Under the pieces are notes generated by a model. The model was not told the origin of the DNA. It searched no databases and saw nothing but the letters and a program-made list of their open reading frames with translations. The position numbers were made by a program, and so were the translations under genes. A stretch of 64,000 nt of DNA from Macrostomum lignano (lineage: Eukaryota), in contig NIVC01000201.1 in NCBI GenBank assembly GCA_002269645.1, positions 727,734 to 791,733 on the forward strand. Direction: 5' to 3'. Position 1 is the first letter of the stretch, and every line of letters begins with the position of its first letter. This document shows, one piece after another, positions 44,427-64,000 of the stretch.

Positions 44427-44664
44427 GGCAGCTGGCTCGGAGTCGCTGACTGAGAAATCTGTTTCAAAGCACAGAAGTGTCGGGCAGCGCCAGCTCTTTT
44501 CCAGGCTGCTGCCGAGCTTTTCTACCTTCGCTCACTTCTGGCTGGCCCGTCTGATTGGCTGGTGGGAGCTGGGCAGGGCTGCTGCCCTCCCCGTGCACTC
44601 TAACCGGTTTTTGGGTCTCCGGTGCACTCTTAGTGCAATCGGCGGAAAATTGGATAAATTTCTT

Positions 44665-45600
44665 CGTGGGCGCCCCTGTCTCTTGATGGGTGCCTCTGTA
44701 TTTTGGTGGGCGCCCCTGTCTCTTGATGGGTGCCTCTGTATTTTGGTGGGCGCCCCTGTCTCTTGATGGGTGCCTCTGTATTTTGGTGGGCGCCCCTGTC
44801 TCTTGATGGGTGCCTCTGTATTTTGGTGGGCGCCCCTGTCTCTTGATGGGTGCCTCTGTATTTTGGTGGGCGCCCCTGTCTCTTGATGGGTGCCTCTGTA
44901 TTTTGGTGGGCGCCCCTGTCTCTTGATGGGTGCCTCTGTATTTTGGTGGGCGCCCCTGTCTCTTGATGGGTGCCTCTGTATTTTGGTGGGCGCCCCTGTC
45001 TCTTGATGGGTGCCTCTGTATTTTGGTGGGCGCCCCTGTCTCTTGATGGGTGCCTCTGTATTTTGGTGGGCGCCCCTGTCTCTTGATGGGTGCCTCTGTA
45101 TTTTGGTGGGCGCCCCTGTCTCTTGATGGGTGCCTCTGTATTTTGGTGGGCGCCCCTGTCTCTTGATGGGTGCCTCTGTATTTTGGTGGGCGCCCCTGTC
45201 TCTTGATGGGTGCCTCTGTATTTTGGTGGGCGCCCCTGTCTCTTGATGGGTGCCTCTGTATTTTGGTGGGCGCCCCTGTCTCTTGATGGGTGCCTCTGTA
45301 TTTTGGTGGGCGCCCCTGTCTCTTGATGGGTGCCTCTGTATTTTGGTGGGCGCCCCTGTCTCTTGATGGGTGCCTCTGTATTTTGGTGGGCGCCCCTGTC
45401 TCTTGATGGGTGCCTCTGTATTTTGGTGGGCGCCCCTGTCTCTTGATGGGTGCCTCTGTATTTTGGTGGGCGCCCCTGTCTCTTGATGGGTGCCTCTGTA
45501 TTTTGGTGGGCGCCCCTGTCTCTTGATGGGTGCCTCTGTATTTTGGTGGGCGCCCCTGTCTCTTGGTCGGCGCCCCCGTCTTTTGGTTGGCGCCTCTGTC
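44665..45600. repeat. Minisatellite, perfect 40 bp unit (TCTTGATGGGTGCCTCTGTATTTTGGTGGGCGCCCCTGTC)
   Basis: About 22 identical copies. Confidence 0.97.
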
Positions 45601-47448
45601 TCCTAGTTTGGCTGCTTCTTCCCCTCGGTCCTTCAGTTGAGTTCAGCGGACTGACAGCAGTTTAAACAGATTGGTTAATTCATTCGGTTGGTAGTTCGCA
45701 GTCTCAGTCAGAGCAGCGAATTCGACCCTCTCGCCCAAGCTGCATCTGATTCGGTGCTGCGGACTGATAAACTTTACAGATCACGCGGCTTATTGACCAA
45801 GAGCGACTGCGGGATTTAATCGACAATTTGGCCAACTGTGAGCTGCATGTGCTCAAACAATCCAATCCTAAATTGAATTCATCGAAAATTAAATTATGTA
45901 CGACAGTATTAAATAAAAAAGTAAGTGTACCAGCATTCTTCAAGTCCACTTAAAAGTACATCAATTGAAATCAACCCGGGATTACTCAAGTAGAATGCTG
46001 CACTTTCAAATCTTGCTAGAAAATGCATTGGCGAAACGGCAAGTCCAGTTTTTAGAGCTAAATTTCCGGGATCCCACATCTCGCCTTCTGGACTGGCGCG
46101 AATTCCAAATGAAGCAGAAAAGCGTTTTGTCGGAGATGCAACCAAACCAATATTTTTTCCTGAAATGCAACTGGAAACCGGCAAGCAAGCAGAGTTCTCG
46201 CAGAACTTCAGCTGCTCTTGTTGCTTCAATCGTCTACTCGTATGAACAGACCTCATTGATTGCAACGCAGAAAAGCAAAAACCTGTTTATTAGAAACGCC
46301 ACTGCATTTCAAAAGAATTGATACCCTCCGATATCACCTCAAGAAAACTTTTCCCAGCAAAAATCATATATGTACTTTCTTTATTAGACTTTCTGAAGTC
46401 CAAAGTCAATCCAAAAGACTGGCGACCCTTTAAACCCATGTTCTAATTGCATGTAATTAATGAAGCACTATGATAGATCACAGAATGCAAATCAGTCAGT
46501 AATATGACCCATTAATTAAAGCCAGGCAAGAGACCAACCTACTTAATCAGACCGAAACTCATCTGAGCAGCACCCTGATGACGCATAGATTAGGATCGTT
46601 CTTAGTAGGAAGAACTAAATCAGTAAGCCAGTTCGTCCTGTTTCCATCAATCAACATCTGTCTGCCAATTGAAGAACACAGCGCTGAAATCACAGAGCAA
46701 ACAGCTCAGAGACAGCGACCGCTCTTGTCATTAAATCAGCAGAGGGCAGAGTACACGCAGCCGCGCCACGACTACTGGTTTGATTCCATGCGTGGCCACC
46801 CTCATTTGTGCAGCTTGCAGTACATGAAAATCGGCCCAGGGTCGATGTGCCATTCACATTACTCGCGAAGGCCAACCCCTCCCCAAGGTACAGAGAGTGT
46901 ACAGGTACATGGCCCACAATTAGAAAATCAGGGCTGCTTCACACCCTGCGTGAGCGTGTGTACGAGAGCGTGCCTGCATACAGTATCCGCGCGCTTGTGT
47001 GTGCTCATGGGCAGAATTACCCCAGCTTCTGGTTGCTCGACGATGCCTCCGAATACGTTGTGCCAGGGTGTCCATGCACAGCCTTCCAGCGAAAAATGTT
47101 ATACACTCAGCAACATGCTGAGGTTTCCACCCGTAAATCAGTGGTCAACAAGTGGAAGCTTTAATCCAACTCTAAGCCATCTACACTCTCTCCTTACCAA
47201 GCTTAGGCTAATTACATCACCCAACTTTAACACAGTTGAGACGAGAACGCGGGCGTGTGGTGTGAATTGCATCTCTTAGGGCAAGGATCTGAGAAAAGTT
47301 GACCACTGGTTTTGCAACGGAAGCTTTAACATCCGCCATCCCGGACCCGGACCCAGTGCGCCTGAGCGAGAGTTGGAAAACCTTGCGTCATTTGCATTGC
47401 CGTGATCTGAATTGGGCCGATGCTCGATGCCCTAGGGTGGCGGTTTTC

Positions 47449-49012: not shown

Positions 49013-49839
49013 TCCATTGCGCACCGCGAAAGCTCCCAGCTCTCAGCAAAATCCCCAAACCAAAGCCCCCTTGTTTTACAGTCTCCATTCCCGCTGAGGC
49101 GAACTGTACTCAATACCCGGCTAATTGCCGGGCTGTAATGACCAACCAACCTACAAAGTCAGTCGGATTGCTAAGCCGGCTCTCCTCTCGATCACTGCAC
49201 CGCTTCCTCCGCCGCAAAGAAATCCGAGACTGACTGATTTGAGCGAGCTGTTTTTCACGCGACACTGCATGGCTACATGACTAGGGAGAAGCAGAGTTAA
49301 TGAGCTCATGGACACCGAGTGAGCAGGCGGGCTAATCTGCGGCCGCTCAGGGCTAATGACCGGCCGAAGCTTGGGAAGAAAGTAAATGAACAAGTCGGGA
49401 AAAAGGCGTTTAAAAGCCGGCTTGCAATCTTTGTCTACGAATTTCCATGGGTAAAGCGATTTGAAAGAGCTCAAAACCTCCATATCCCAGTTGAGCACAG
49501 AGTTTTCTAAACAATTGACGGACGCAAGTCTTTTTTATTCTTGCATTTTTCTAATGAAAACAGAAACATTGCTATCATTTTAACGAAAATCAGGTACTAT
49601 ACTTACTCAATACTAGGGACGTGAATCGAAAAAATTAGAGGCCAAGGACCTTCATATCTTCTTATCATATCGCTTGCAGTCAGTGAATTTGTGTCTGTGG
49701 TAAAGTCCTATCCAAGTACGCTCGTAATGCTTTTCGAGGAATACTTATTGATCAATAGATTAGCCTCCAACTGTTGTCGTTTCCCGTCCCTAGTATTGAG
49801 TAGTCCCTGCAGGACGAAAATGAACAAATATGAACACCC

Positions 49840-50362
49840 ATATTTGAGCCCCGCACTCCCAACACCATTGAGTCCCGCACTCCCAACACCATTGAGTCCC
49901 GCACTCTCAACACCATTGAGTCCCGCACTCTCAACACCATTGAGCCCCGCACTCCCAACACCATTGAGCCCCGCACTCCCAACACCATTGAGCCCCGCAC
50001 TCCCAACACCATTGAGCCCCGCACTCCCAACACCATTGAGCCCCGCACTCCCAACACCATTGAGTCCCGCACTCTCAACACCATTGAGTCCCGCACTCTC
50101 AACACCATTGAGCCCCGCACTCCCAACACCATTGAGCCCCGCACTCCCAACACCATTGAGCCCGCACTCCCAACACCATTGAGCCCCGCACTCCCAACAC
50201 CATTGAGCCCCGCACTCCCAACACCATTGAGCCCCGCACTCCCAACACCATTGAGTCCCGCACTCTCAACACAATTGAGTCCCGCACTCTCAACACCATT
50301 GAGTCCCGCACTCCCAACGCTCCAACATCATTGAGTCCCGTACTTCAACACCATTGAGTCCC
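49840..50362. repeat. Minisatellite, 24 bp unit (ATTGAGCCCCGCACTCCCAACACC); isolated copy near 50615-50645
   Basis: Tandem array. Confidence 0.95.
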
Positions 50363-50804
50363 ACTGAACACACTAAAATAGGGGTCAAATAACGCGTAGG
50401 CACACCAAGACAGGTTTCTGGCTCGTTTGTCTTCGTCAGTCAGCCACAGTTACGCGCCGTCCTTTCCCACCACTTTTAGTGTGCAGACGTATCTTTTATG
50501 CTGTAATTTCTTCTATGGCGACATTTTCGAGCTATGCGAGGGATTTAACGATTCAAATCTTTATTATCTGTCTACTTTTCTCGGTAGCATAAATTTGAAT
50601 CTCTCACACCACATTCCAACACCATTGAGTCCCGCACTCCAACGCGATGATACGAGCGTAGTTATAGATGCAGAACTACAACGTAATAAAGATAATAGGC
50701 TTGTGACAAGCACTGCTAAGTACGAGTATAAAGTGTGGTTTAAGAAGACGGAACCTCAGTCAAATCTTCATTATTCAGTTTGAGTTTCAGGCAGAAAATA
50801 GAAG

Positions 50805-53800
50805 TCAGCGCGGTGCGCGGCAGAGCGGCTGATGGTCGTAGACTTCCTCGGCAGAGTCAAACGCCCGAACGCAGAGCCAGCAGAAGTGACAATGACACCT
50901 GGTGCAGGTCATGTGATTGCAGCCGGCATTTTTCTCGATGTGCACCCGGCACCGCGGGCACTGCTTGCGATTGCGCGAATCAGCGGTCAGCCACGTCTGC
51001 GGGAAATCCGGTTTGCGGAATCGGTAGTACGAGCTCGTATTTTGCTTGCAGATCTGGGAGAAACGGCATGCTCTCGAGCTTCTACTTACAGTACGAAGCT
51101 TGGTAATGAGCGGGAGCAGTTATAGTTGTGCTACTCTCTTATTTTATTTGCCCCACTTAGCGCCTGTGTGTGTGTCCATCTCCTGCTTGTCTGCCTTAGT
51201 GTCTGAGAGTCTTTGTGTCTTAGAGCTTAGTCATAAATTCTGTTTTAGTATCCGCCCATCTTAGTGCCTGCAACAGTGTTAGTCTGTCAAAACAAACACG
51301 ATGCACAACACGAAAAGCCTCAAATGCCAAACAGGCTACTAGCAGTAGCTGCTGCAGCCAATCAGAACAAACTTGAAGTCCGTAGTCCGGATTCGCCCTG
51401 ATCTCCTTGGCGGTCTCGCAGGTCAAGCCGACGTGGCTGAAGTATTGACAACTGAAATTACGGAAAAGATACCATTTGAAAAGAATTCGAAATTTACTAG
51501 CAGAAGCAATTTTATTCGCGAGAGGCTGCTCACTCCAGACAGAAGGTTCCACGACAGACTTTGCAGCGGCTCTCCCTGACGGCGGCCTCTTTGAAATCGC
51601 GCAGCAGGCCGGGACAGTCGGGCGCCGGGCAGAACTGCAGACAGCTGGCCGGTAAATTTACGTGACTCTTCAGGGCGGGTCCGAGGAGGCGGCGCATCAG
51701 CTGCTCTCGTTCGGCTGGGCTGGGCGCGCGGTCAAGGATGTCCTGTGCCACGTGGAACGGTCGGCCACAGCCCTGAGCAGGTCCGAGACAAAGGTGAAAG
51801 TGTGGAAAATGGGATGAGACACGGAGGATGGGAAGAGGGATTATATTAGAGAAGAAATTATCCATTCGAGCCTCACCTCAGCAGCACACAGCAGAGGCAC
51901 ATCGGTAGTGGAGGCCAGCTGCAGGTCCAGGCAATCGGTGCAGTAGACGTGACCGCACAATGCCAGGGTGGTGGCGGCCTCAGTGCCCGCTGGCGCGAAG
52001 CACACGGGGCACTCCAGCTTCACGGTGCCAGGCACAGCAACCGTTGTGGCGTTCAGAGCCGCCGCAGCAGCCGCGGCGGCCGCTTCCTCTTCGGCCAGAC
52101 GCTCAACGGCCTCAGCGGCGGCGGCCACAGCGTCGGCGTTCACTCCAAACAGAGTCAGCGTCCTGCTGTCGCCTAGGTCGAGCTCGGCGGTGACGGACTC
52201 GTCGCCCAGTTTGGACAAATCCCTGCCGAATGTCTTCAATAGGCGACGGATGAGGCTGCGAGGGCGATGAGCGCCAGCCAGAGAGAGTTCGCGCAGGCTG
52301 AGTGCCTCTCGCTCTGACAAGTAGCTGGGGAGTTCAAAGATTATTTTAAGTATCAAACAGGACTGCGTGTACTTCTAATAATATCGGCTACTATGGTTTG
52401 TATTTAACAGGTGAGCACGTGACTACGGCACGACCACAGCAACTGGTTTGCTATGCGTATACATTGTCTAACGGTGAAAATACCGTTCCTCGAATACCTA
52501 TGCGAGTGTATGTACTCAGAGTAAGTTAGTGGAAGAAGCATTTTGAGCATCTATATTTGTATTTGAAAGTAAGATTTGAACTCGCAATAGGCCCAGATGG
52601 ATTTCTTAATACTCTTCGTCACCTGGTAAACGAAGTTCTGATCAACTTTTAGATTGAGTGTAATTAAATTTTAGCAGACACCCCACAAAAATTCCAACAG
52701 TGTTCTTTCCCTTGCGTACGACTTGCTTGCCAAGCTGTAACCAAAACAAAGTATAAATATAAGCTACTGTCCTAAGCAAGTTACAACCTTCCAACATCTC
52801 CTTAGTTCACACTTTAACGGATGCTACAAACTAACAATTCGCAACATTTTTATCAAAATTTCGCTTCACATTCTTTGCTTGCTGCTCTTCGATAGGCGAT
52901 TACTAAGGGTTGACAGTCCCGAAAATTTATACGGAGCTAAATTAATTAACTATTTAATCGTTCACTTACTTGTTGATGATAATCTGGCACCGGCTCTTGA
53001 CCGAGTCGGTACCGTAGATGCTCAAGCACTCGCGCCGCCTGTCGAATATGGCGTGTGACAGTTCCGGAAGACGTTTACGCAGCTCGGACTCCGACCTGGC
53101 CAGCAGAAGGCTTCTGAGAGCGTCATTCCTGCTGCAGTCCAGCTCGTACGGCATCAGCGACTTTCTCAGGTGCTGATAGGTGAAGGACCAGGTGGTGACA
53201 TCCTGTGTGTCGACGTCAATTTTTACCTTTTTCACTTCGACTCCACGATGTTTCTCACGGTAGTCCGTATTTATATTAATTGACACGGGGTTAACTCGCA
53301 GCATATTTTGAATAGCAGTAGGGAACAGCGAACTCCGCACCTCAATGTCCCGCTTCACTTCAAGCAGTAGCGGCTCTGAGGCGGAAAAAATTTCGCTGGA
53401 AACAATTAGCGGAGGAAAAATTAACTCGAACTTTGAGCCAGCGAATGCGGACGCCTTGTAAGCATTTTGCTTTGCCAGGAATATACTTTTTCGTTCTCGG
53501 CCGCGAACGGGTAACCATGCGACCAATTAGACAGATTTGCCAAAGCAAAACCTTTCAGCTGTTTAAACTCCCTAGCAAACACAATGTAGTCGTCATCGTA
53601 TCTGAAACAAATCGTCACTTGCCAGTCAAAGAAGCCAGAATTGGGTGGATCTCGAATCCCAAATTGATAGTTTTCTTCGTCATCTACAAATTCCGAACTG
53701 AATACGGCTCTTAAAATTTCAAGCACTCGCGCGCCAGCGGCCTCCTTTGATAGGGCATTATCTTGGTGCTCGCGGCGCATCGTAACTCTCGGGTTCATAG

Positions 53801-54274
53801 AGTCCAGCAGCACAGCAGAGCGAGCAAGCTCATTAGCAATAACATCTTCATCGATCCATAACGGCACGTCAAAAATGATTAGCTTTTCAGGATCTCTCTT
53901 GTCAAGGGCCATTTTACTTGCCCAAAAGCTGTTGTTGAGTGACAGAGAAGTTACGCGTTCAAGAACGCTGCTAGCATCTTCCGGATTGTCGAATGAAACA
54001 TTGGCAAAACCTGTAGGGTACCGGCGAGGAAAAGTGAGCCGCAGCTTCAGCTCGTTTAAGTCGCAGGTTTGCTGTCTGTCCGTGCTATTAGAGTACGAAT
54101 GTGGCTTTATCTGGGCTAAATACGCCACCTCAGATGCATTTAGCTTTTCAACTAGTTTCTGAGCGACGACTGGCGACTCGGCTATCAGAAACTTGCCCTT
54201 TTCGTTAACTTGAATTTCACCGAATTCGTGACCGTACTTTGTAGCAACGGCGTTGAGCAACGGGATTGAAATAG
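50805..54274 (-). pseudogene. 3' part of an RBR (RING1-IBR-RING2) E3 ligase gene preceded by RRM/KH-like region, disrupted by a Polinton insertion and one frameshift; exons <54274-52970, 52324-51877, 51772-51534, 51451-51373 and 50996-50805
   Basis: RING1 CPVC..CGHVYCTDC; IBR CPAPDC..CKVC..FCLD|CQYFSHVGLTC; RING2 CPRCRVHIEKNAGCNHMTC..C..HFCWLC. Introns are in phase. The frame changes near 53420-53520 and no N-terminus is present in the window. The layout resembles the C-terminus of DEAH-helicase-RBR proteins (inference). Confidence 0.75.
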
Positions 54275-55388
54275 AGTAGTAGGGGAAATGTGGACTCTGC
54301 CGCAGGAATTTCCGTGGGAAAACCACGGGCCTATAGTGTGTAAACATAGCGCCTATGTAAATGCATTGGTGGACTCTGCCGCAGGGAAAGCCACGGAATT
54401 TCCATGGGGGGGGGGTCGGAGAGCGAAATATACGGGCTTTTCATATGACCGATTCCAGGACCAGAATCGGTTCGAAGCTTTTCATATTGTCTGTTCCGTT
54501 TTCATAGTCGCGGTTCCAAAACCGCGATCCGATTCTGGAATTCGGTTCGAGAAATTTTCTCGATCTTTTATCGTATTTCTATAGAAACGAAAGGACGAAT
54601 TTGAAATAACATTTCAAACATTTCAAAAGAATACTAGTTTCTAGATTTTAAATGAAAATGTTTTTATCCTTTGAGAAGTAATTAAGCTAATTAGACAAAA
54701 AAAAGAAAAATTTGACGCTTTTCATTTTCCTACTACTCGATCTTCAATGAAAAAAGCCGAATAGAGCTCTATGTAAATGGATTGGTGGACTCTGCCGCAG
54801 GGGAAAGCAGCATAAGTTCCTGGGAAGCCCAAAACTGACTCTCTAAAAATAGTAAAAAACTTCTCTAGTGTACATTAGCCATAGTTAATTGAAAATTGGG
54901 CGAACCTGGCTTCCGATCTCCACAATATTTAAACTTTGTTGGCAGTGGGAATACATAGGCCTATGTTCATGAGTTCCTCCGCACTTTAGTACGAGTCTCG
55001 CAAATTGGACTGAATTTGTTGTGAAAGTGAGCTTGCAAAGCGCCGTTTATTGCCTTGTTATTGTTTTTCTTGATACTGCTGATTTGGCCGCGGGGAAGTG
55101 GGGTGCAGGTCTGGGGTGGAGGTCTTTAAAACTAACTGATGCACGGGACGGGGGGAATGTTATCAGTTTTATTATTATTATTGCTCAATAACGGTAAGAA
55201 AATAATTAGTGCATACACATATGTAACGTGTAAACATATCTGTATGTGTACATATAGGCGATATTGCCTGGTGATTTGAATATAAGGACTGAAAAATTCT
55301 ACTGAGCCATTAAAATATATTTTGTTGAGATTTAAACGGACTTCGAAATTTCAAATTTTCACAAAAACCCTTGATTAAATTTTAAACC

Positions 55389-56300
55389 ATGAGCCATTCT
55401 CGGTGCCCATCCTACGTTCATGAGGTGTGTGTCACCTGCAATATTAGTATGCTCGGTGGACTAAAGCACCATGTAGCGAATGAAGGCTGCAGTGTCACCC
55501 GATGGCTACTATGCCATGAATGCCAGTCCGTTGAGCTCTTCACCGTTAGAGGCCAAATCAAAAGGCATAAAAATCATTCGACTGTTAATTGGAGCTCTGC
55601 TGAAGACCGCGAGCAGGCACGCATTACTGCTCTGGAAGTTGCACGTCAAGAGGAACGCAACAGGGCGGCAGAACGCATTCGAGAGCCGGTGAGCACTTTG
55701 AGTCAAGTTATCACGAGCTTATGCGGCCGAGTAACGAACACTGGTGACCAGCCCAACGCCCAGCCTGCTGCTGCTTCTGCTGCTCTACTCGACGGTGATG
55801 TCGGAGCTCCCCTGCTTGATGCTGCTGATGGAGGTGGCACCCCTGACTTCGAGCTGAATGAGCTGGACACCGCTTTCTTCGAGAACCTCGATGGTGAGCC
55901 TGAAGCACAGGAGCAGCAAGAAATGCAACAGCAGCAGCAGCGGCGTGCAATCCCTGTTCCCGAAAAAAATATGGAGCGTGCCAGGATGCTGGCAGAAGTC
56001 AGCCTGTCCGACGTGATTCGCGATATGGACTCAGGCCCTGCGCCTCCACCACCACCACCACCGACTGAGGTTCAGCCTGCGGCCGAAGTCAGCCTGTCTG
56101 ACCTGATTCGCGATATGGACTCAGGCCCTGCGCCTGCACCACCGCCACCACCGACTGAGGTTCAGCCTGCGGCCGCTAATGAAGTGCAGCAGCCAGCACC
56201 TCTCTGCATCCAGCTGGTTCTGCCCAACAGTGTTACGGGTGAATATTGGATTGACTTGGGAGGGGCTTTCCGTATTCGCCTGAGCAATTCTCAATTCTAA
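55389..56300 (+). CDS. Polinton accessory protein of unknown function (Cys/His N-terminus, coiled coil, duplicated Pro-rich segment)
   Basis: Intronless 303 aa ORF with a real ATG; CVTC...HH...CHEC; AEVSLSD.IRDMDSGPAPPPPPP.TEVQPA occurs twice. Confidence 0.65.
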   Translation: MSHSRCPSYVHEVCVTCNISMLGGLKHHVANEGCSVTRWLLCHECQSVELFTVRGQIKRHKNHSTVNWSSAEDREQARITALEVARQEERNRAAERIREPVSTLSQVITSLCGRVTNTGDQPNAQPAAASAALLDGDVGAPLLDAADGGGTPDFELNELDTAFFENLDGEPEAQEQQEMQQQQQRRAIPVPEKNMERARMLAEVSLSDVIRDMDSGPAPPPPPPPTEVQPAAEVSLSDLIRDMDSGPAPAPPPPPTEVQPAAANEVQQPAPLCIQLVLPNSVTGEYWIDLGGAFRIRLSNSQF

Positions 56301-57086
56301 ACTAATGATTCTAATGTACCAGTCGTTAAATATTAAATTAGCAAACATTCTGTGTTGAATTAAATTGCGAGATGATTATCTGTATATTGCAAAAGTGAAT
56401 AATATTTATTTTTCTTTTCAACATCTCATTGCTATTTTTAAAGTTCATATTTATGCAGGCAGTGCGCGTTGATCAAGCTGTGCTTGGGTGTGAATGCAGA
56501 TTGGGTTTGATTCTGTTTGGGTTTGTAATCTCCTTCTTTAACTTGTGCTTCTAATAATGTAGCGTATCATTGCTTTTTTAAAATATAAATTTTAAAGCGC
56601 AATGAAGCGCTGAATTTTGGAAAAGTTTGCAGCTTTGAGTTATTTTGAAATATTTTTAGAATTCGTTTTATAAGACCCTTTTATTAAACCCTTTTATTAG
56701 ACCCTTTATTAGACCCCGAAATTTGACACGTAACGACAAGACCCGAAGTACAACTTTCGAAAATATGTACACTTAATACGAGCGTATATCCACAAATTAG
56801 GGATTTAAATTTACTTTTGCAAGAAAAAATAATTTCACAAATATGTATTTCAGCAAATTTCCTCATCTAATTCTCATCGAAAATGCTCTAAGCCGTGTCA
56901 TCAACCGAACCGAGATGCCTTCTTCGAGAGAAACTTCATCATCATCATCAGCAAGTGATCGGCCGCTTGAGTCTACCAATTTTGCTATCGAAATCGAACC
57001 AACCAGTGAGTCAATCCAATGTGATTAGTAAAGCCAGTAAAGTAGACTCTTCCCTCTATAAGTACAAGAAAAAGTAGTCATAAAAC

Positions 57087-57655
57087 CCGATTCCTGATTC
57101 GCCGATTCACCGATTCCCGATTCCCGATTCACCGATTCACCGATTCACTGATTCCCGATTCCTGATTCACTGATTAGCGATTCACCGATTCCCGATTCAC
57201 GGATTCACCGATTCCCGATTCACCGATTCACCGATTCACCGATTCACTGATTCCCGATTCACCGATTCACTGATTCCCGATTCACCGATTCACTGATTCC
57301 CGATTCACCGATTCACCGATTCACTGATTCCCGATTCCTGATTCACTGATTAGCGATTCACCGATTCCCGATTCGCCGATTCCCGATTCACCGATTCCCG
57401 ATTCGCCGATTCCCGATTCACCGATTCCCGATTCGCCGATTCCCGATTCACTGATTCCCGATTCACCGATTCACCGATTCACTGATTCCCGATTCCTGAT
57501 TCACTGATTAGCGATTCACCGATTCCCGATTCGCCGATTCCCGATTCGCCGATTCCCGATTCACTGATTCCCGATTCCTGATTCACTGATTAGCGATTCA
57601 CCGATTCCCGATTCGCCGATTCCCGATTCACTGATTCCCGATTAACCAATTCCCG
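57087..57655. repeat. Composite 7 bp-based repeat (CCGATTC / ACTGATTC variants) upstream of pPolB
   Basis: Tandem array. Confidence 0.9.
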
Positions 57656-57729
57656 CACCATAATGAGGTGGAATTAGGAATATGATTTATAAATTTTAAC
57701 TGTCGAGTGAAACGCGTACATCCAACAAC

Positions 57730-60700
57730 ATGCTAATTCATGCAGGCATTCAATTCAGCTCGGCTATTCACGCTAGTGCGCATGATGACACGCTGCAGGT
57801 CAGACGCTTCACTCCAGCATCAAGAGATCTCGAGCCATTTCATTTTTTATCATCAACGAAGTTTGCAGTGCTACAGGCTGTTGAGATGAGATTCGATTCA
57901 TCCGAGAATAATTCTATTCGAGCGCAGCTTAAGTTCAACATCAGAATGGTGAGAATCAAGGAAGCTGCGGTAATCAATGCAGAAGATAAGTGGATCGCAT
58001 GCGGTCTTGAGCTTCTCTCTGATCTAAGAGATTTTGAATTGTGGTGGTTGCAGCAGTTTTCTGAGCTGGAACGCAAGATTGATGCCTACAATTCAAATGG
58101 GAGCGGTTGGATGGTTGAGCAAATCAACTATTTTGATCTGTGCTCTGCCCTCACTGATCGCATTCGCTACTATCGTGGACGATGCGCGAATTTTACTTTG
58201 CCCAATCAGCTGGCGGTTAAGAAGGCCATAATCAACCCACCGAGCGATGGAAACAATTGCTTTCTGTTTGCCTGTCTCGCTTACCTGCACATCAGAGATC
58301 CTGGTGTGATGAAGTCTTGCCATCGACTAACAACTTACAGCAGATGGTTGGATGAAATCGATCTGAGCGGCATCGCACTACCAGTCGCAATTTCCGATTT
58401 AAACGTTATAGAGGAAAATAATTCCGAAATCTGTTTCACAGTTTTTAGCTGGGAAGATGATGAGGCCTATGTCATTCGCCAGCCTCTTCCTGGGATTTGT
58501 GCCTCTCGCAAGGTTATTCCTCTACTCTTGCTTCGCAACTCCAGCTCCGATGATGCTGATGATGATGGTGGTGGTGATGAGAATTGTGGGACTGGACACT
58601 GGTGTGCAGTTTCGAACCTGGACCGGCTCCTGAACAGCAAAAAAGGTCTGAGGAATCGCAAATGGTGTGAGAAGTGCATTTCTCCGTTTCGATCCCAGGA
58701 AGAGTTGGAGCAGCATCGAGACAGCTGCAATCCTCAACTGAAACCAGCCATCATGGAGCGCATGCCTGATGCAAGTAGCAACACAATGCAGTTCATGGCT
58801 TGGGAAAAGACAATCAGTCCCCCATTTGTTGTCTACGCAGATTTTGAAGCTCTGAACACCCCACGTGAACCAGTGGAGTCTGAAAGAGAAGTTACTGTCA
58901 CCAAGTTAACTGAGCATGTACCTGTAGCTGCTGGCTACATTGTTATTCCAAGAGAGGGTATGAGCAGCAAAATTCTGAGGCCGAGTGAGGATGTTTTCCT
59001 CTGCAGCGGACCCAATCCGAATTCTGTCGTGAAACAGTTTTTGGCCTCACTCGAACGTCTTGCTCGTGAAGTTTATGGTTGGAATACCGAGTTTAGTCAT
59101 CAGATTGCTGACAGAAACAGAGATGACAACAGGCGCAGCTTTCAAGATGCCCCACAGTGCTATTTATGCAATGCAGTGTTTATTTCATCTTCTGACAAGC
59201 ACTGGGATCACGACCACCTCAGCGGTGAATACAAGGGTGCTGCCTGCGCTTCGTGTAACAAGCTTGCTCGGCTAAAACGGCGATTTTTGCCAATAGTTTT
59301 CCACAATCTTCGCGGATATGACCTGCATTTGATTTTCTCAACTGCGCTGGGTGACATGACTGGTTGGAGGGTGAGCGTCATCCCCCAAACTGCCGAGTCG
59401 TACCTCTCCATGAGGGTCGAGTTCCAGATTGATGAGTATGAGAAAGATGGCGTAAAAAAGCCCCTGTTTTTCACGCTACAATTCATCGACTCACTGCAAT
59501 TCCTACACAGCAGTCTATCTCAACTTATTAAGAACTTGCCGGAGGACAACTGTCCCATCACTAATGCGATGCGATCAAAGTATCCAAATCTTTCAAGCGA
59601 TGTACTGTTTAGTAAGGGAGTTTTCCCTTATGATTATCTCTCGAATTTGAATGTGCTTGATGATCGCCAACTACCAAAAGTAGAAAGCTTTTTTAACCGA
59701 CTCACCAACAGCCACTGTACCGAGGCGGAGTATCGGCATGCGCAGAAGGCCTGGACTGAATTCGAATCTACAACATTGCGCGATTACATGCTCTGCTACT
59801 TGGAGCTGGACATCAGGCAACTAGCAGATATCTTTGAGGGTTTCGAAGGCTGAGTTTGCAGGAAGACAAGCTAGATCCGGTGCATTTTGTGTCAACTCCA
59901 GGCCTATCATTCGCTTCTGCACTAAAGTCTTCTCAAGTCAAGATCGAACTGCTAACTGACCTCGAGATGTATAAAATGTTTGAAAAAGGAATTCGGGGTG
60001 GAATGTCTTTTGTCAATGTACATCATGTCCAGAGCGAAAGTAGCGATGATGATAATGAACCAGCAGGTAGGAGTTTACTGGCTGTTGATGCTAATAATCT
60101 TTACGGTCATGCGCTCACAATGCCCCTACCTGTTGGTGGCTTTCGCTGGCTCAGTCAAGAGGAGCTCTGCTCATGGTCCGAGTGCCGCTTTCTTTCCCTG
60201 GATGATGACGCTCCAATCGGCTACCTTGTCGAAGCGGATTTGCTCTACCCAGCCGAAATCCACACGGCAACGGAGGATCTTCCATTCGCCCCAGAGAAAA
60301 GGTGTCCGAATTTTGAAGAATTTCCGCAGTACATGCGAGAATTATGGGTACTGCTTCAACATGACAATGATCATTCTCAGCATCATCAGCAGCAGCAGCC
60401 CGACGCGAACACGACTGAGAATCCTACCGTTGCGCGCTACCGTGGAGTACAAAAATTAATGCTCACATGCCACAACAAGTTTTCCTATGTACTGCACTCG
60501 TTCTGCTCTCCGATTCTATCTATCGCACGGAATGAAGTTGCATGGGCTCCACAGGATGATCGAATTCAGGCAAGAACCTGTCTTCGCGGACTACATTAAG
60601 ATGAATAGCGAGAAGCGCTCTATGGCGAAAAATGATTTCGAGAAGGATTTCTATAAACTGAAAAATAACTCCCTGTTTGGCAAAACAATGGAGAACGTGC

Positions 60701-61488
60701 GCAAGCGGCGGGACATCAGAGTGTGCAGTGACAAGAAAAAAGCCAAGACTGTTTCTTCTCAACCAAATGTCGCATCATTCACAATCATTACGCCGTCACT
60801 CAGCATCTTTGAGCTTCAAAAGCGCGAAGTAACTCTTGATCGCCCAGTTTTCATGGGGCAGTGTGTTCTAGATCGCTCCAAGATCATCATGTATCGACTT
60901 TACTATGACAAAATAAAACCCATGCTAGAATTCCGTGATGGAGCAAGAGTTCGAGTTTGCGGTGGCGATACAGACTCGTTGTTTTTGAGCTTAGAGAACC
61001 TTAGTTTGCAGAGAGAAGTGCTGCCAATCCTGCATGCCGAAGGCCTCTTGGACACCTCCAATTTTCTCACTAATCATCCTCTCTTCTCGAATCGGCTAAA
61101 GGCCAAGCTAGGCTGCATTAAAGATGAAGCTGGTGGACTGCAACAGATTGAGTGGGTGCTGCTAAGGCCCAAGCTCTATTCTTTCCTCGCTGAAAGCTCG
61201 GCGGCATGCAAAGCAAAAGCAAAAGGCATCCAACGAAGCGTGCTGAAGAATGAAGTCTCCCACGACGACTACGTCAAGATTTTCAAGGGGGCTTCAAAGC
61301 TGTCGCTCACTGTTCGTCGAATTGGAAGTGAGAGACATCGCGTTTTCACCATTGAGCAACGTAAGCTCGCTCTCAGTATCTGGGAGGACAAGCGAGCGTG
61401 GACTGGCTCGAACTCAAGTCTTCCGTTCGGCCACTTTCAGCTGTTAATCAGGGGTAGTCCGAAAAGGACAGCGGACTGCTTAGAGTGA
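57730..61488 (+). CDS. Protein-primed family B DNA polymerase (pPolB), split by two frameshifts (~59845 and ~60500)
   Basis: N-terminal GSGW and AIIN..DGNNCFLFAC; endonuclease VII-like DHDHLSGEYKGAACASCN; Exo I YADFE, Exo II FHNLRGYD and Exo III YLELDI; polymerase motifs DANNLYG, KLKNNSLFGK and GDTDS. Confidence 0.95.
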
Positions 61489-62205
61489 TGCTTTGCACAT
61501 CTGTGTAACCTTGGCGTTGAAATTTATTGACTTTTACTTATGTACTCCATGAATTGTTTCTGTGGTTTAATTAATCTGAATGATGGATGATGATGATAAT
61601 GATGGATGATGATGATAATGACAATGCTGGAACGAATAGAGCCAATTCAGTTAGTTACATATTTGTAGTCTCTAAGCAACTAACTGAACGTAACATTTTC
61701 GAGTTGAGTTGTTCCAGATTTATTTCAATACGAACTTGTGAAAGCCATGTTGGAATAATTTGCGGCATATTGGTCTGGCTTTCCCTTTTTATTATCCTTG
61801 AATTTTTGCACAATTGAATGAACTGAGTTACTGTCCTTTTTTATCTTTGCTAGCTTTTCCACTCATATTTTTTGTAACCATTATCCAATGATTATCAGAA
61901 AAATATTTGCTTCCTTTTTCATTTCTGCTAGTTCTTGTTCGTTTTTATTTGTCTTAGCAGTGCATAATCTGAGTGATGGGTGTGCTTTTTTTTCTTGAGT
62001 TGGTGGTGGTCTGATTAAATTTTCTATACTCAAACTAATATTGCGATTTCAGTTATGAAAATAAAGAAAAAGTCGATCGAAGTCTGATTTTCAGGTATAT
62101 TGATTAAAATGCACGCATCTTAATACGTGGTATATGCATGCAAGATTATTATATTTTTGTTCAGCTGTCGTCTTTTTATTTAATTGTTGAAACATATGGT
62201 TATTA

Positions 62206-62767
62206 TTAGCACAGAAAACGGACAAGCAAGGAAAAGTCGGAAATTAGCATGCTCATTGTTTTTGCACCACTGAGAACGAATGAGCCATTGTGAAAAAGCA
62301 GGCATTTGCAGAAGCTTAGTTTGCAGATCAAAGCAGAAAATGATCTGGCTCATATTGAGCATTTGGTAAAGTGTTCACAAGATTAGCGAGGGGAAGTGCT
62401 CTGCACAAGTCAATTTTCCCATGCGCAGTAATAGTTTTAATCCGCACATGCACAGTTTGATGAGGCAGCAGTTGAGCAGGCACTCTGCGATGCAGCATAG
62501 CCACGAAGCGACGAGCGGCCCTGACTGAGGCCGAGTAGCTCCGGGCGCCACAGATACTCAGTTGTCCAGTCGGATAGAGCAATAGAGTCACTCTGGGACT
62601 CCGCATCCTCTTGATAAGCACTCGGGGCCAGACGGGCGATAGATGACATGAGCCATGCTGAGAGCCAGTTCCCGCAGAGGCAACTGAGCACCCCTGTCTC
62701 CAGCAAGTCTCAGATCCACGCCGCCGACCAGATTGGTCACTCGCAGGGCTGTCGCAGGTGTACTCAT
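62206..62767 (-). CDS. TATA-binding-protein-like (TBP fold) gene inside the Polinton, ~187 aa, two single-base frameshifts (~62625 and ~62335)
   Basis: Reconstructed protein: MSTPATALRVTNLVGGVDLRL...LPLRELALSMAHVIYRPSGP/RVLIKRMRSPRVTLLLYPTGQLSICGARSYSASVRAARRFVAMLHR...RIKTITAHGKIDL...LPLANLVNTLPNAQYEPDHF/xALICKLSFCKCLLFHNGSFVLSGAKT.... It is colinear with both TBP core repeats. Confidence 0.85.
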
Positions 62768-62829
62768 TTAGAGAGTCCTTTCTGTCAGTGGTGCTGTCTT
62801 TGCGAGCTTTTGAGTGGTGCGGGCACACC

Positions 62830-63278
62830 TCGCTTCTTAAGTTGATACAGAACTTCGGTTTCAGCCAGTTGTAGTACAGTAATACATTTTTCACTGCACA
62901 ACCAGTATCAGATGCTTGAATCAAAGGTGATCCAGATCCTCTAGGTTGTACACCTGTCTGCCAAGCAGCTCAGTCAGAAAGATGGACTTTTTCACCCGCT
63001 TGTCCAGGTGGACCGTAAGCAATGTTTAGAATGTCATTAGCCAAATTCATGTACGGTCGGGATCCATCTGTCCACTTGAAATGATGCAAATTCTTTGAGA
63101 GCTTTCTGTAATGTACTTGCATCTCAGGTGAGATTCTGTCCCATGAGAACGGAGAGGCGTACACGTGATGAGTGATATGGTAACTGCCAGCCCGGACTTG
63201 GGCAATGGCCAGCTCCTTCACAACGAAATCTCTGCTCGATCTCTCGCGTGGGAAGCCTTGGAAGTCAATATAATTCAT
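62830..63278 (-). pseudogene. Polinton-type small DEDD/RNase H-fold exonuclease-like gene, frameshifted
   Basis: MNYIDFQGF...FVVKELA...PFSW...HHFKW.DG..PY, then in other frames KSIFLTELLGRQVYNLEDL and GCAVKNVLLYYNWL. The family assignment is from my recollection of Polinton accessory ORFs. Confidence 0.55.
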
Positions 63279-63399
63279 GATCGGATGGTTTCAAGACGCA
63301 AGATGTCGGGAAGCCGACTCAGTTCCCCTTCTTAAATAGTTTTTTTTCCTGCTCAGGTGTAGCCAGGCTCTCCCACTCCGAATCCCTTAACTGTATGAT

Positions 63400-63997
63400 G
63401 TGCAGGGGTGGCCTCTGGAGAAACAGCCGGTTTAGAAATTAGCTGCCTTACTGACTTTCCTATAGCCGAAGCTGGGATGTTAAGCTTTTTGTCTTGAAAG
63501 CAATGAGACAAACTCACTCCAGCCTACCGCTCGTTGGCACATTTCGAATCCCTCACCGCACTGTGAAACAAAATCCAGAATGTTTGAGGAGGGTATTGTC
63601 TTCCCAGAAATTTGCGCCTCGCCATTTTCGGACAGCTCCGAATCAGAGAGGGATTGCCAGATAGGATGGCCCATAGACTGCGGGCTCTCGCTTTAAACTT
63701 CTGCGGCACGGATTGGGTGATCTTTTTCCCCCAGCTGCTTGTGCAATATCTGTTTTTCAGCATCTTTGCATCACTCGCAGGTACCGCACCATCCTTTCCA
63801 GTCCGCTTGCGCTTGACCAGCAAACTCTTCATCGCATCATGGTACATGGCAGCTTTCACATCGTCTGGGCAATCCTCGCAAGCAAAATATCATTGCATTT
63901 CCTCTGCGCATATCTCACAGCAGTGTCCATTTCAGACTCGACTGGCTTCAAAATTCTGTGTGAGCATGTCGTATTCTGACTTGGGGATCAGAACCAT
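63400..63997 (-). pseudogene. Conserved Polinton hypothetical protein, frameshifted
   Basis: MVLIPK...DDVKAAMYHDAM...QSVPQKFKARARSLW...NPSL/SENGEAQISGKTIPSSNILDFV...VGWSEF. This pattern recurs in Polinton hypothetical proteins (recollection). Confidence 0.55.
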
Positions 63998-64000
63998 CTT

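Follow-up and report, generated by a model that had tools for sequence, protein, structure and literature searches.

Polintons/Mavericks (adintoviruses) are recognized by AGTAGT termini, terminal inverted repeats (TIRs), 6-bp target-site duplications (TSDs), a protein-primed DNA polymerase (pPolB), an rve integrase with a chromodomain, an adenovirus-type protease, an ATPase and capsid-type genes. All of these, the capsid-type genes as candidates, were shared by an element of the flatworm Macrostomum lignano, a laboratory animal; one copy of the element lies at the end of a 64,000-nt stretch of contig NIVC01000201.1 (C201; positions 727,734 to 791,733, hereafter the window). The element differed by a gene for a TATA-binding protein (TBP) and by a lineage-specific TATA-like word, both undiscussed in the literature searched. 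A “TBP” label for MELD viruses with adintovirus-like PolB stands in the Fig. 5 legend of Starrett 2021 (PMC8502044, consulted in part), of which section 3.4 and one supplement, as far as available, had no further mention. Beyond this legend, no text on a TBP in Polintons was found in the literature searched, Repbase, subscription papers, figures and bioRxiv supplements lying outside this scope; term look-ups in the accessible text of PMC10748475, PMC11071308, PMC12220804, PMC7221094 and bioRxiv 2025.02.07.637071 gave none.

Beta- and gammaherpesviruses encode a TBP of their own (vTBP, e.g. KSHV ORF24). According to the available part of PMC12529657, ORF24 has Asn at V122, T124 and V161 and reads TATTWAA before late genes; the element resembled this system in a virus-encoded TBP, a variant TATA word before structural genes, a predicted use of host Pol II and polar changes at the same three positions. 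ORF24 is large, makes direct contact with Pol II together with five viral partners, and was modelled as incompatible with TFIIB (same source, same part), whereas the element TBP was a bare 187-aa core that kept the TFIIB stirrup and had no recognisable partner, its neighbours matching no family. This likeness is drawn as an analogy rather than as demonstrated descent. A viral TBP fold is also common to the element and to giant viruses (NCLDV, mirusviruses), but most viral TBPs, including those of most giant viruses, lose the stirrup glutamates (human E284/E286) and supply a TFIIB of their own (Ravarani 2020, PMC7221094, from the part available), and the element TBP kept these glutamates. With cellular TBP and TRF2/TBPL1 (PF00352) it shared the two-repeat saddle (TM about 0.8) and N69, V71, L114, YEPE, F190 and F207, but it was 27–30% identical to host TBP and TRF2, had no N-terminal extension, carried an altered DNA face and formed a separate branch. 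The element is a Polinton, and its protein is a member of the TBP family, not a canonical TBP, a TRF2 or a retrocopy.

In the window the element interrupted, at about 54275, a host gene (50800–54440) encoding RBR (RING-IBR) and DEAH11-like KH domains. Its left TIR (54275..54409, plus strand) started with AGTAGTAG. On the same strand followed a 303-aa accessory ORF of the polymerase arm (55389..56300), without a family match and with a canonical-type ATATAAGG near 55280, a possible 5′ coding exon of pPolB (56843..57005), and pPolB with an endonuclease VII insert (57746..61488), which was split into three frames here and was one 1200-aa ORF in copy C130. The minus strand carried the TBP-like gene (62206..62767), an accessory ORF of 281 aa in unbroken copies (62437..63278) and a 240-aa accessory ORF (63291..64000) reaching the contig end, so the TBP gene lay between pPolB and Polinton accessory ORFs, as the preliminary description had placed it. 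Both accessory ORFs were broken in the window and gave no match in Pfam, PDB sequences or Atlas. Since the contig stops at the window end, the right TIR of this copy is outside the sequence; its structural block is also past the contig end. Tandem repeat arrays were seen at 44464–45660, 49700–50350 and 57050–57670, the last inside the putative pPolB intron. A contig of run X2, which also skipped host introns, joined 57005 to 57746 at GTGAGT..CAG (GT..AG), its shorter side covering 29 letters; this hints weakly at transcription and splicing of the element. Across 62100–64000, contigs of the compared runs showed many single-base gaps against the window, including across the 3′ break of the TBP gene; these may be assembly errors, or the run contigs may come from other copies.

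Complete copies with TIRs and exact 6-bp TSDs were found in C84 (TCTATA) and C106 (CTAGCA), and a third in C1545 had a TSD matching at 5 of 6 positions. In complete copies the TBP gene was within the TIRs, which started with AGT, the element termini being AGTAGT; the window displayed the left TIR only. The gene order was PC4-like, integrase-chromo, penton-like, basic core, capsid-like, protease, ATPase, 105-aa, 240-aa, 281-aa and TBP, followed by the convergent pPolB and the 303-aa ORF. In Pfam, pPolB matched PF03175 (E 7e-14), the integrase rve PF00665 (E 2.5e-16) and the protease PF00770 (peptidase C5, above cut-off); chromo and PC4 domains were supported, and the candidate packaging ATPase was a P-loop ORF with weak Pfam matches. 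No Pfam match was obtained for the 427-aa and 269-aa capsid-type ORFs. The names capsid, penton and core are ones that we presume from size, position and resemblance. Among the element's genes, none was recognisable as TFIIB-like or as an RNA polymerase. The copies in C84 (667694–679831) and C106 (360392–372511) occupied different sites and had the same 4-kb deletion of pPolB with TIRs and TSDs intact; this pPolB-deleted form is a non-autonomous derivative that spread. The C106 flank (353964–375023) contained inverted repeats of several kb with 99% similarity, which may be an assembly artefact.

The TBP gene was repeated across the genome. A TBP family search gave 330 candidates, and the best 150 of these, when scored, comprised 3 host TBP loci, 3 TRF2-like loci and, for the remainder, element-type loci. 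Among the matches listed, a capsid gene was 2–5 kb upstream on the same strand at at least 72 of 118 element-type loci. These locus counts are not copy numbers, because the assembly has host genes in triplicate.

On the minus strand of 62206–62767, pieces of both TBP core repeats were recovered in three frames. The two breaks reported earlier were located near 62640 and 62340, and one extra substitution was seen in comparison with a natural unbroken copy. The longest window piece alone matched Pfam TBP (E 2.7e-10). A motif first read as YEPDHF came from a shifted frame; because unbroken copies read YEPESF, both stirrup glutamates are kept. A genome DNA search with this gene gave 139 candidates, of which the best 40 were scored and 30 fetched. 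An unbroken TBP ORF of 187–188 aa was present in 22 of the 30 copies, and the other 8, including the window copy, were broken; breaks were as frequent in the pPolB and capsid genes of these copies as in the TBP gene. The natural 187-aa ORF of copy L003 (P0001) was taken as reference. It matched both TBP repeats (PF00352) with E 4.5e-22 and 78.1 bits against a cut-off of 22.9, and its 35 distinct matches among PDB sequences were all TBP-containing. Its model, folded with an 85-row alignment that included TBPs, was a saddle with pLDDT 95.2 and TM 0.76–0.85 to solved TBPs, and Foldseek returned viral TBP-like proteins among the structural matches. The public gene models P0010–P0013 joined pieces of this gene to unrelated exons, and it is therefore mis-annotated in databases.

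Whole-gene dN/dS was 0.13–0.29 in 18 and 0.35–0.45 in 3 of 21 non-independent pairs from seven natural copies of five subfamilies. The element TBP gene is under purifying selection. The TBP ORF overlapped the tail of the upstream 281-aa ORF by 332 nt, and in this overlap constraint was found in the TBP frame only. The 281-aa ORF was under purifying selection over its first ~155 codons; a genuine overlapping gene in its tail was ruled out by dN/dS of 2.6–3.5 in 8 of 10 pairs, the tail being a passenger frame. Subfamilies (L003, L028, L029, L047 and L052) were 95–100% identical over the structural block and TBP repeat 1, dropping to 53–82% at repeat 2. Subfamilies alike in the structural block carried different pPolB arms, with the switch at TBP codons about 90–110, the lobe boundary. 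As judged from these alignments, recombination has occurred repeatedly at the TBP lobe boundary with the frame retained.

The DNA-contacting residues, given in yeast numbering and confirmed by Table 1 of PMC12529657 (seen in part), were compared. The preliminary description had N69 kept, N159 replaced by Thr, F190 and F207 kept and F116 replaced by Tyr, and the alignment agreed at each position. It had also called the one remaining intercalating Phe lost: F99 aligned to Pro48, but a conserved Trp47 adjoins this residue, so that this Phe is only possibly lost. P0001 also kept V71, L114 and the stirrup E186/E188. Its changes were V122S, T124C, N159T, V161T, K120Q, K211S, F116Y and F99P; several basic DNA contacts were lost, and the canonical set of four intercalating Phe and both central Asn was incomplete. 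The acidic C-lobe stirrup for TFIIB (human E284/E286) was present as E140 and E142 in all nine proteins of this lineage. Among 70 related proteins, chosen by similarity to our own profiles and with Polinton context known for some, N159T was found in 56, V161T/S in 58 and E188 in 69.

In a tree of 50 rows the element TBPs did not group with host TBP; a clade of the two was rejected (AU p 1.06e-41), and the TRF2 rows grouped with cellular TBP, away from the element rows. Barring alignment artefacts, selection and tree together excluded an origin as a host-TBP retrocopy. In an initial broad profile search, canonical TBPs made up most of the matches. A word-indexed protein search gave five close relatives, two labelled Macrostomum lignano and three at about 70%, and a full profile search extended the set by P0014, P0020 and many short orphan TBPs. 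Scans of viral contigs with A2, P0045 and P0014 as queries found no relative. A metagenome scan with one orphan TBP group yielded two loci (L087 and L088) of 339 pattern matches, both Polintons in which the TBP adjoined integrase-chromo.

Two further lineages were found. In lineage 2 (C291, C255) the capsid was about 40% alike and the TBP, in the same position, was 33–36% identical. In lineage 3 the capsid was about 30% alike, and 4 of 7 stretches had a far more divergent TBP within the TIRs, ahead of pPolB, the other 3 being cut or giving no clear TBP match. The Pfam matches of this TBP were weak (E 1e-5 and 3e-4, none for C1975); its model (pLDDT 85.8) matched TBPs at E 6e-9 with TM 0.63–0.69. 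Lineage 3 was first read as a TBP-less control, until wider stretches revealed the TBP gene before pPolB, and no TBP-less Polinton was found among the lineages examined. The lineage 3 TBP-like ORFs (L120:9345, L126:3290, L137:2628) all started at a pyrimidine tract followed by CAG, which suggests an upstream exon; the gene, described earlier as intronless, is so in the window's lineage but may not be in lineage 3, where it starts at this splice-acceptor-like site. In a branch of lineage 3 (C362 and C297; L126:1872-3290, L134:1440-2846) the TBP-like region was in frame with a deoxynucleoside kinase (PF01712, E 7e-24), and these elements also carried a dUTPase-like ORF. A gene for PC4 (transcription coactivator p15) was present in lineages 1 and 2 and also in L087, directly before TBP (L067:8661-9422; L087:261-1127); it is possibly a second transcription or replication factor. 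In a 44-row TBP tree with 11 rows left out, all 10 TBPs with shown Polinton context fell on the same side of a 96/83 branch as 16 unplaced metagenome proteins; this branch joined long branches. Because the branches are long, a single origin of the Polinton TBPs is given as possible only.

Upstream sequences of the element genes were searched with no prior pattern, and CTTAAGAA was the top k-mer. In the window this word (62834..62841, minus strand), a putative element-specific TATA-like box, was 74 nt before the start codon of the TBP-like gene, inside the upstream ORF, and a TTTAAGAA word (63329..63336, minus strand) was 58 nt before the start of the 281-aa ORF. Six genes (integrase, penton, ATPase, 105-aa, 281-aa and TBP) had a word of the form YTTAAGAA at a distance of 41–74 nt upstream, and in C84 the core gene had one at 149 nt. 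Such words were present in 6/10, 6/10 and 5/9 upstream windows of three subfamilies, where chance would give about 1 (P 1e-4 to 6e-4), with 7 in sense and 0–1 in antisense orientation, and a shuffle test gave 8 against 0.84 expected (0/200 shuffles). The 54-kb host part of the window contained 8, both strands together. Before the integrase the word was preserved where the flanks were unalignable, and inside ORFs it dictated the codons used (4 of 22 Leu-Arg pairs, 0.4 being expected). No YTTAAGAA was found within 130 nt of the protease or the 240-aa ORF. The capsid gene was without it except in C96, only a CCTAAGAA variant being there in subfamilies A–C. The PC4-like gene and the 303-aa ORF had canonical TATATAAG-type boxes.

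Other lineages had words of their own, which barely crossed between lineages. That of lineage 3, TATAAGC, occurred 7, 5 and 5 times in sense and never in antisense orientation (0/200 shuffles each). Lineage 2 words were mostly TATAAGAA and CATAAGAA and were weaker (10/200 shuffles). L087 and L088 had TATAAG(A/T) before the integrase and core genes; TATAAG was not significant there (16/200 and 22/200 shuffles), and the narrower patterns that reached 1/200 were picked after reading the sequences. A general [TC][AT]TAAG pattern mostly showed no enrichment, only the lineage words being enriched. In lineage 2 and in L087 the TBP gene carried a canonical TATAAAAG.

We propose that the element-specific TBP probably binds the variant TATA word and recruits host TFIIB and Pol II to late promoters, a prediction from sequence and modelled structure. 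Host TBP would read the terminal genes first (the PC4-like gene and the 303-aa ORF, with TATATAAG-type boxes). The element TBP would then bind YTTAAGAA, the putative promoter box standing at about -30 across the 8-bp footprint of TBP with G at position 6; this register is deduced from the conserved span of 8 bases. The remodelled DNA face (N159T, V161T, V122S, T124C, F116Y and F99P) would read the word, and the invariant E140/E142 stirrup would dock TFIIB, presumably that of the host because the element has no recognised TFIIB-like gene. Host Pol II would then switch on the integrase, capsid, packaging and accessory genes, and the word before the TBP gene itself in the window's lineage would give positive feedback. 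The earlier suggestion that the element redirects host Pol II to its own promoters was supported by the lineage-specific upstream word and the kept TFIIB stirrup; the putative promoters, which it described as AT-rich, are a defined variant TATA word, not simply AT-rich.

Because crystal structures exist of wild-type TBP on boxes with a single G(-26) or T(-30) variant (PDB 1qn5 and 1qna, by their titles), host TBP may read variant words. Host TBP/TFIID could then serve the element promoters, and the element TBP could act as a decoy or antagonist, sequestering TFIIB, NC2, Mot1 or TAF1 or lowering host transcription; an invariant protein-binding stirrup beside an eroded DNA face fits such a role. 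However, each lineage has its own word together with its own divergent TBP, the recurrence of N159T (56/70) and V161T/S (58/70) looks like changed specificity and not decay, and F190, F207, N69, V71 and L114 were kept, so that we regard a decoy as unlikely. It is rather improbable that the word is another signal (RNA processing, 3′ end, trans-splicing or packaging) while the TBP acts elsewhere, e.g. at the TIRs or with Pol III. Before the integrase the word follows a non-coding gap, and that of the TBP gene is placed well within the upstream ORF; the spacing of the words clusters at 41–74 nt, and this TATA-like word of 8 bp is confined to the sense strand, even though several words coincide with the 3′ end of the ORF before them and for some the next ATG is 100–170 nt away.

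TAAG is the late promoter of baculovirus/nudivirus type. All lineage words contain this core, and Polinton-like viruses have been described, in the part of the literature available, as hyperparasites of large viruses; the word could thus be where the RNA polymerase of a co-infecting large DNA virus starts late transcription, with the element TBP as an accessory. We consider this very improbable, as the bases flanking TAAG vary by lineage within one host and a viral polymerase would have no obvious use for a TBP that carries a eukaryotic TFIIB stirrup. The broken state of the window copy and of 7 of the 29 other fetched copies is what a functionless passenger copy of host TBP would show, but in these copies pPolB and capsid genes were equally often broken, dN/dS was below 0.5 in 21/21 pairs, the AU test rejected a common clade, and the TBP was found in three lineages and two foreign contigs; a passenger is hardly credible. 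Recruitment of host TFIIB and Pol II to a variant TATA word by the element's own TBP is thus the reading that we prefer. Extended to animal Polintons as a broad class, it would be a herpesvirus-like two-stage programme based on one minimal TBP of ancient acquisition; the DNA face of this TBP would co-evolve with a private word of 8 bp in each lineage, so that co-resident lineages are insulated while host TFIIB and Pol II are common to all; we hold the chances of this wider proposal to be evenly balanced.

For the expression of Polinton capsid and integrase genes, and for the viral nature of these elements, a dedicated TBP and promoter word offer a direct handle. From the model of a TBP paired with a word follow predictions on start sites and on the division into early and late genes, and knock-down of a single gene should shut off the structural block; in M. 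lignano such tests are practical. The model would account for the large number of “TBP” gene calls in this genome, where 330 candidates stand beside 3 host TBP and 3 TRF2-like loci. If true, it would extend viral TBPs from large viruses to elements of 12–17 kb without an RNA polymerase of their own, and would provide natural altered-specificity (orthogonal) TBP–DNA pairs and a master switch for Polinton capsid expression.
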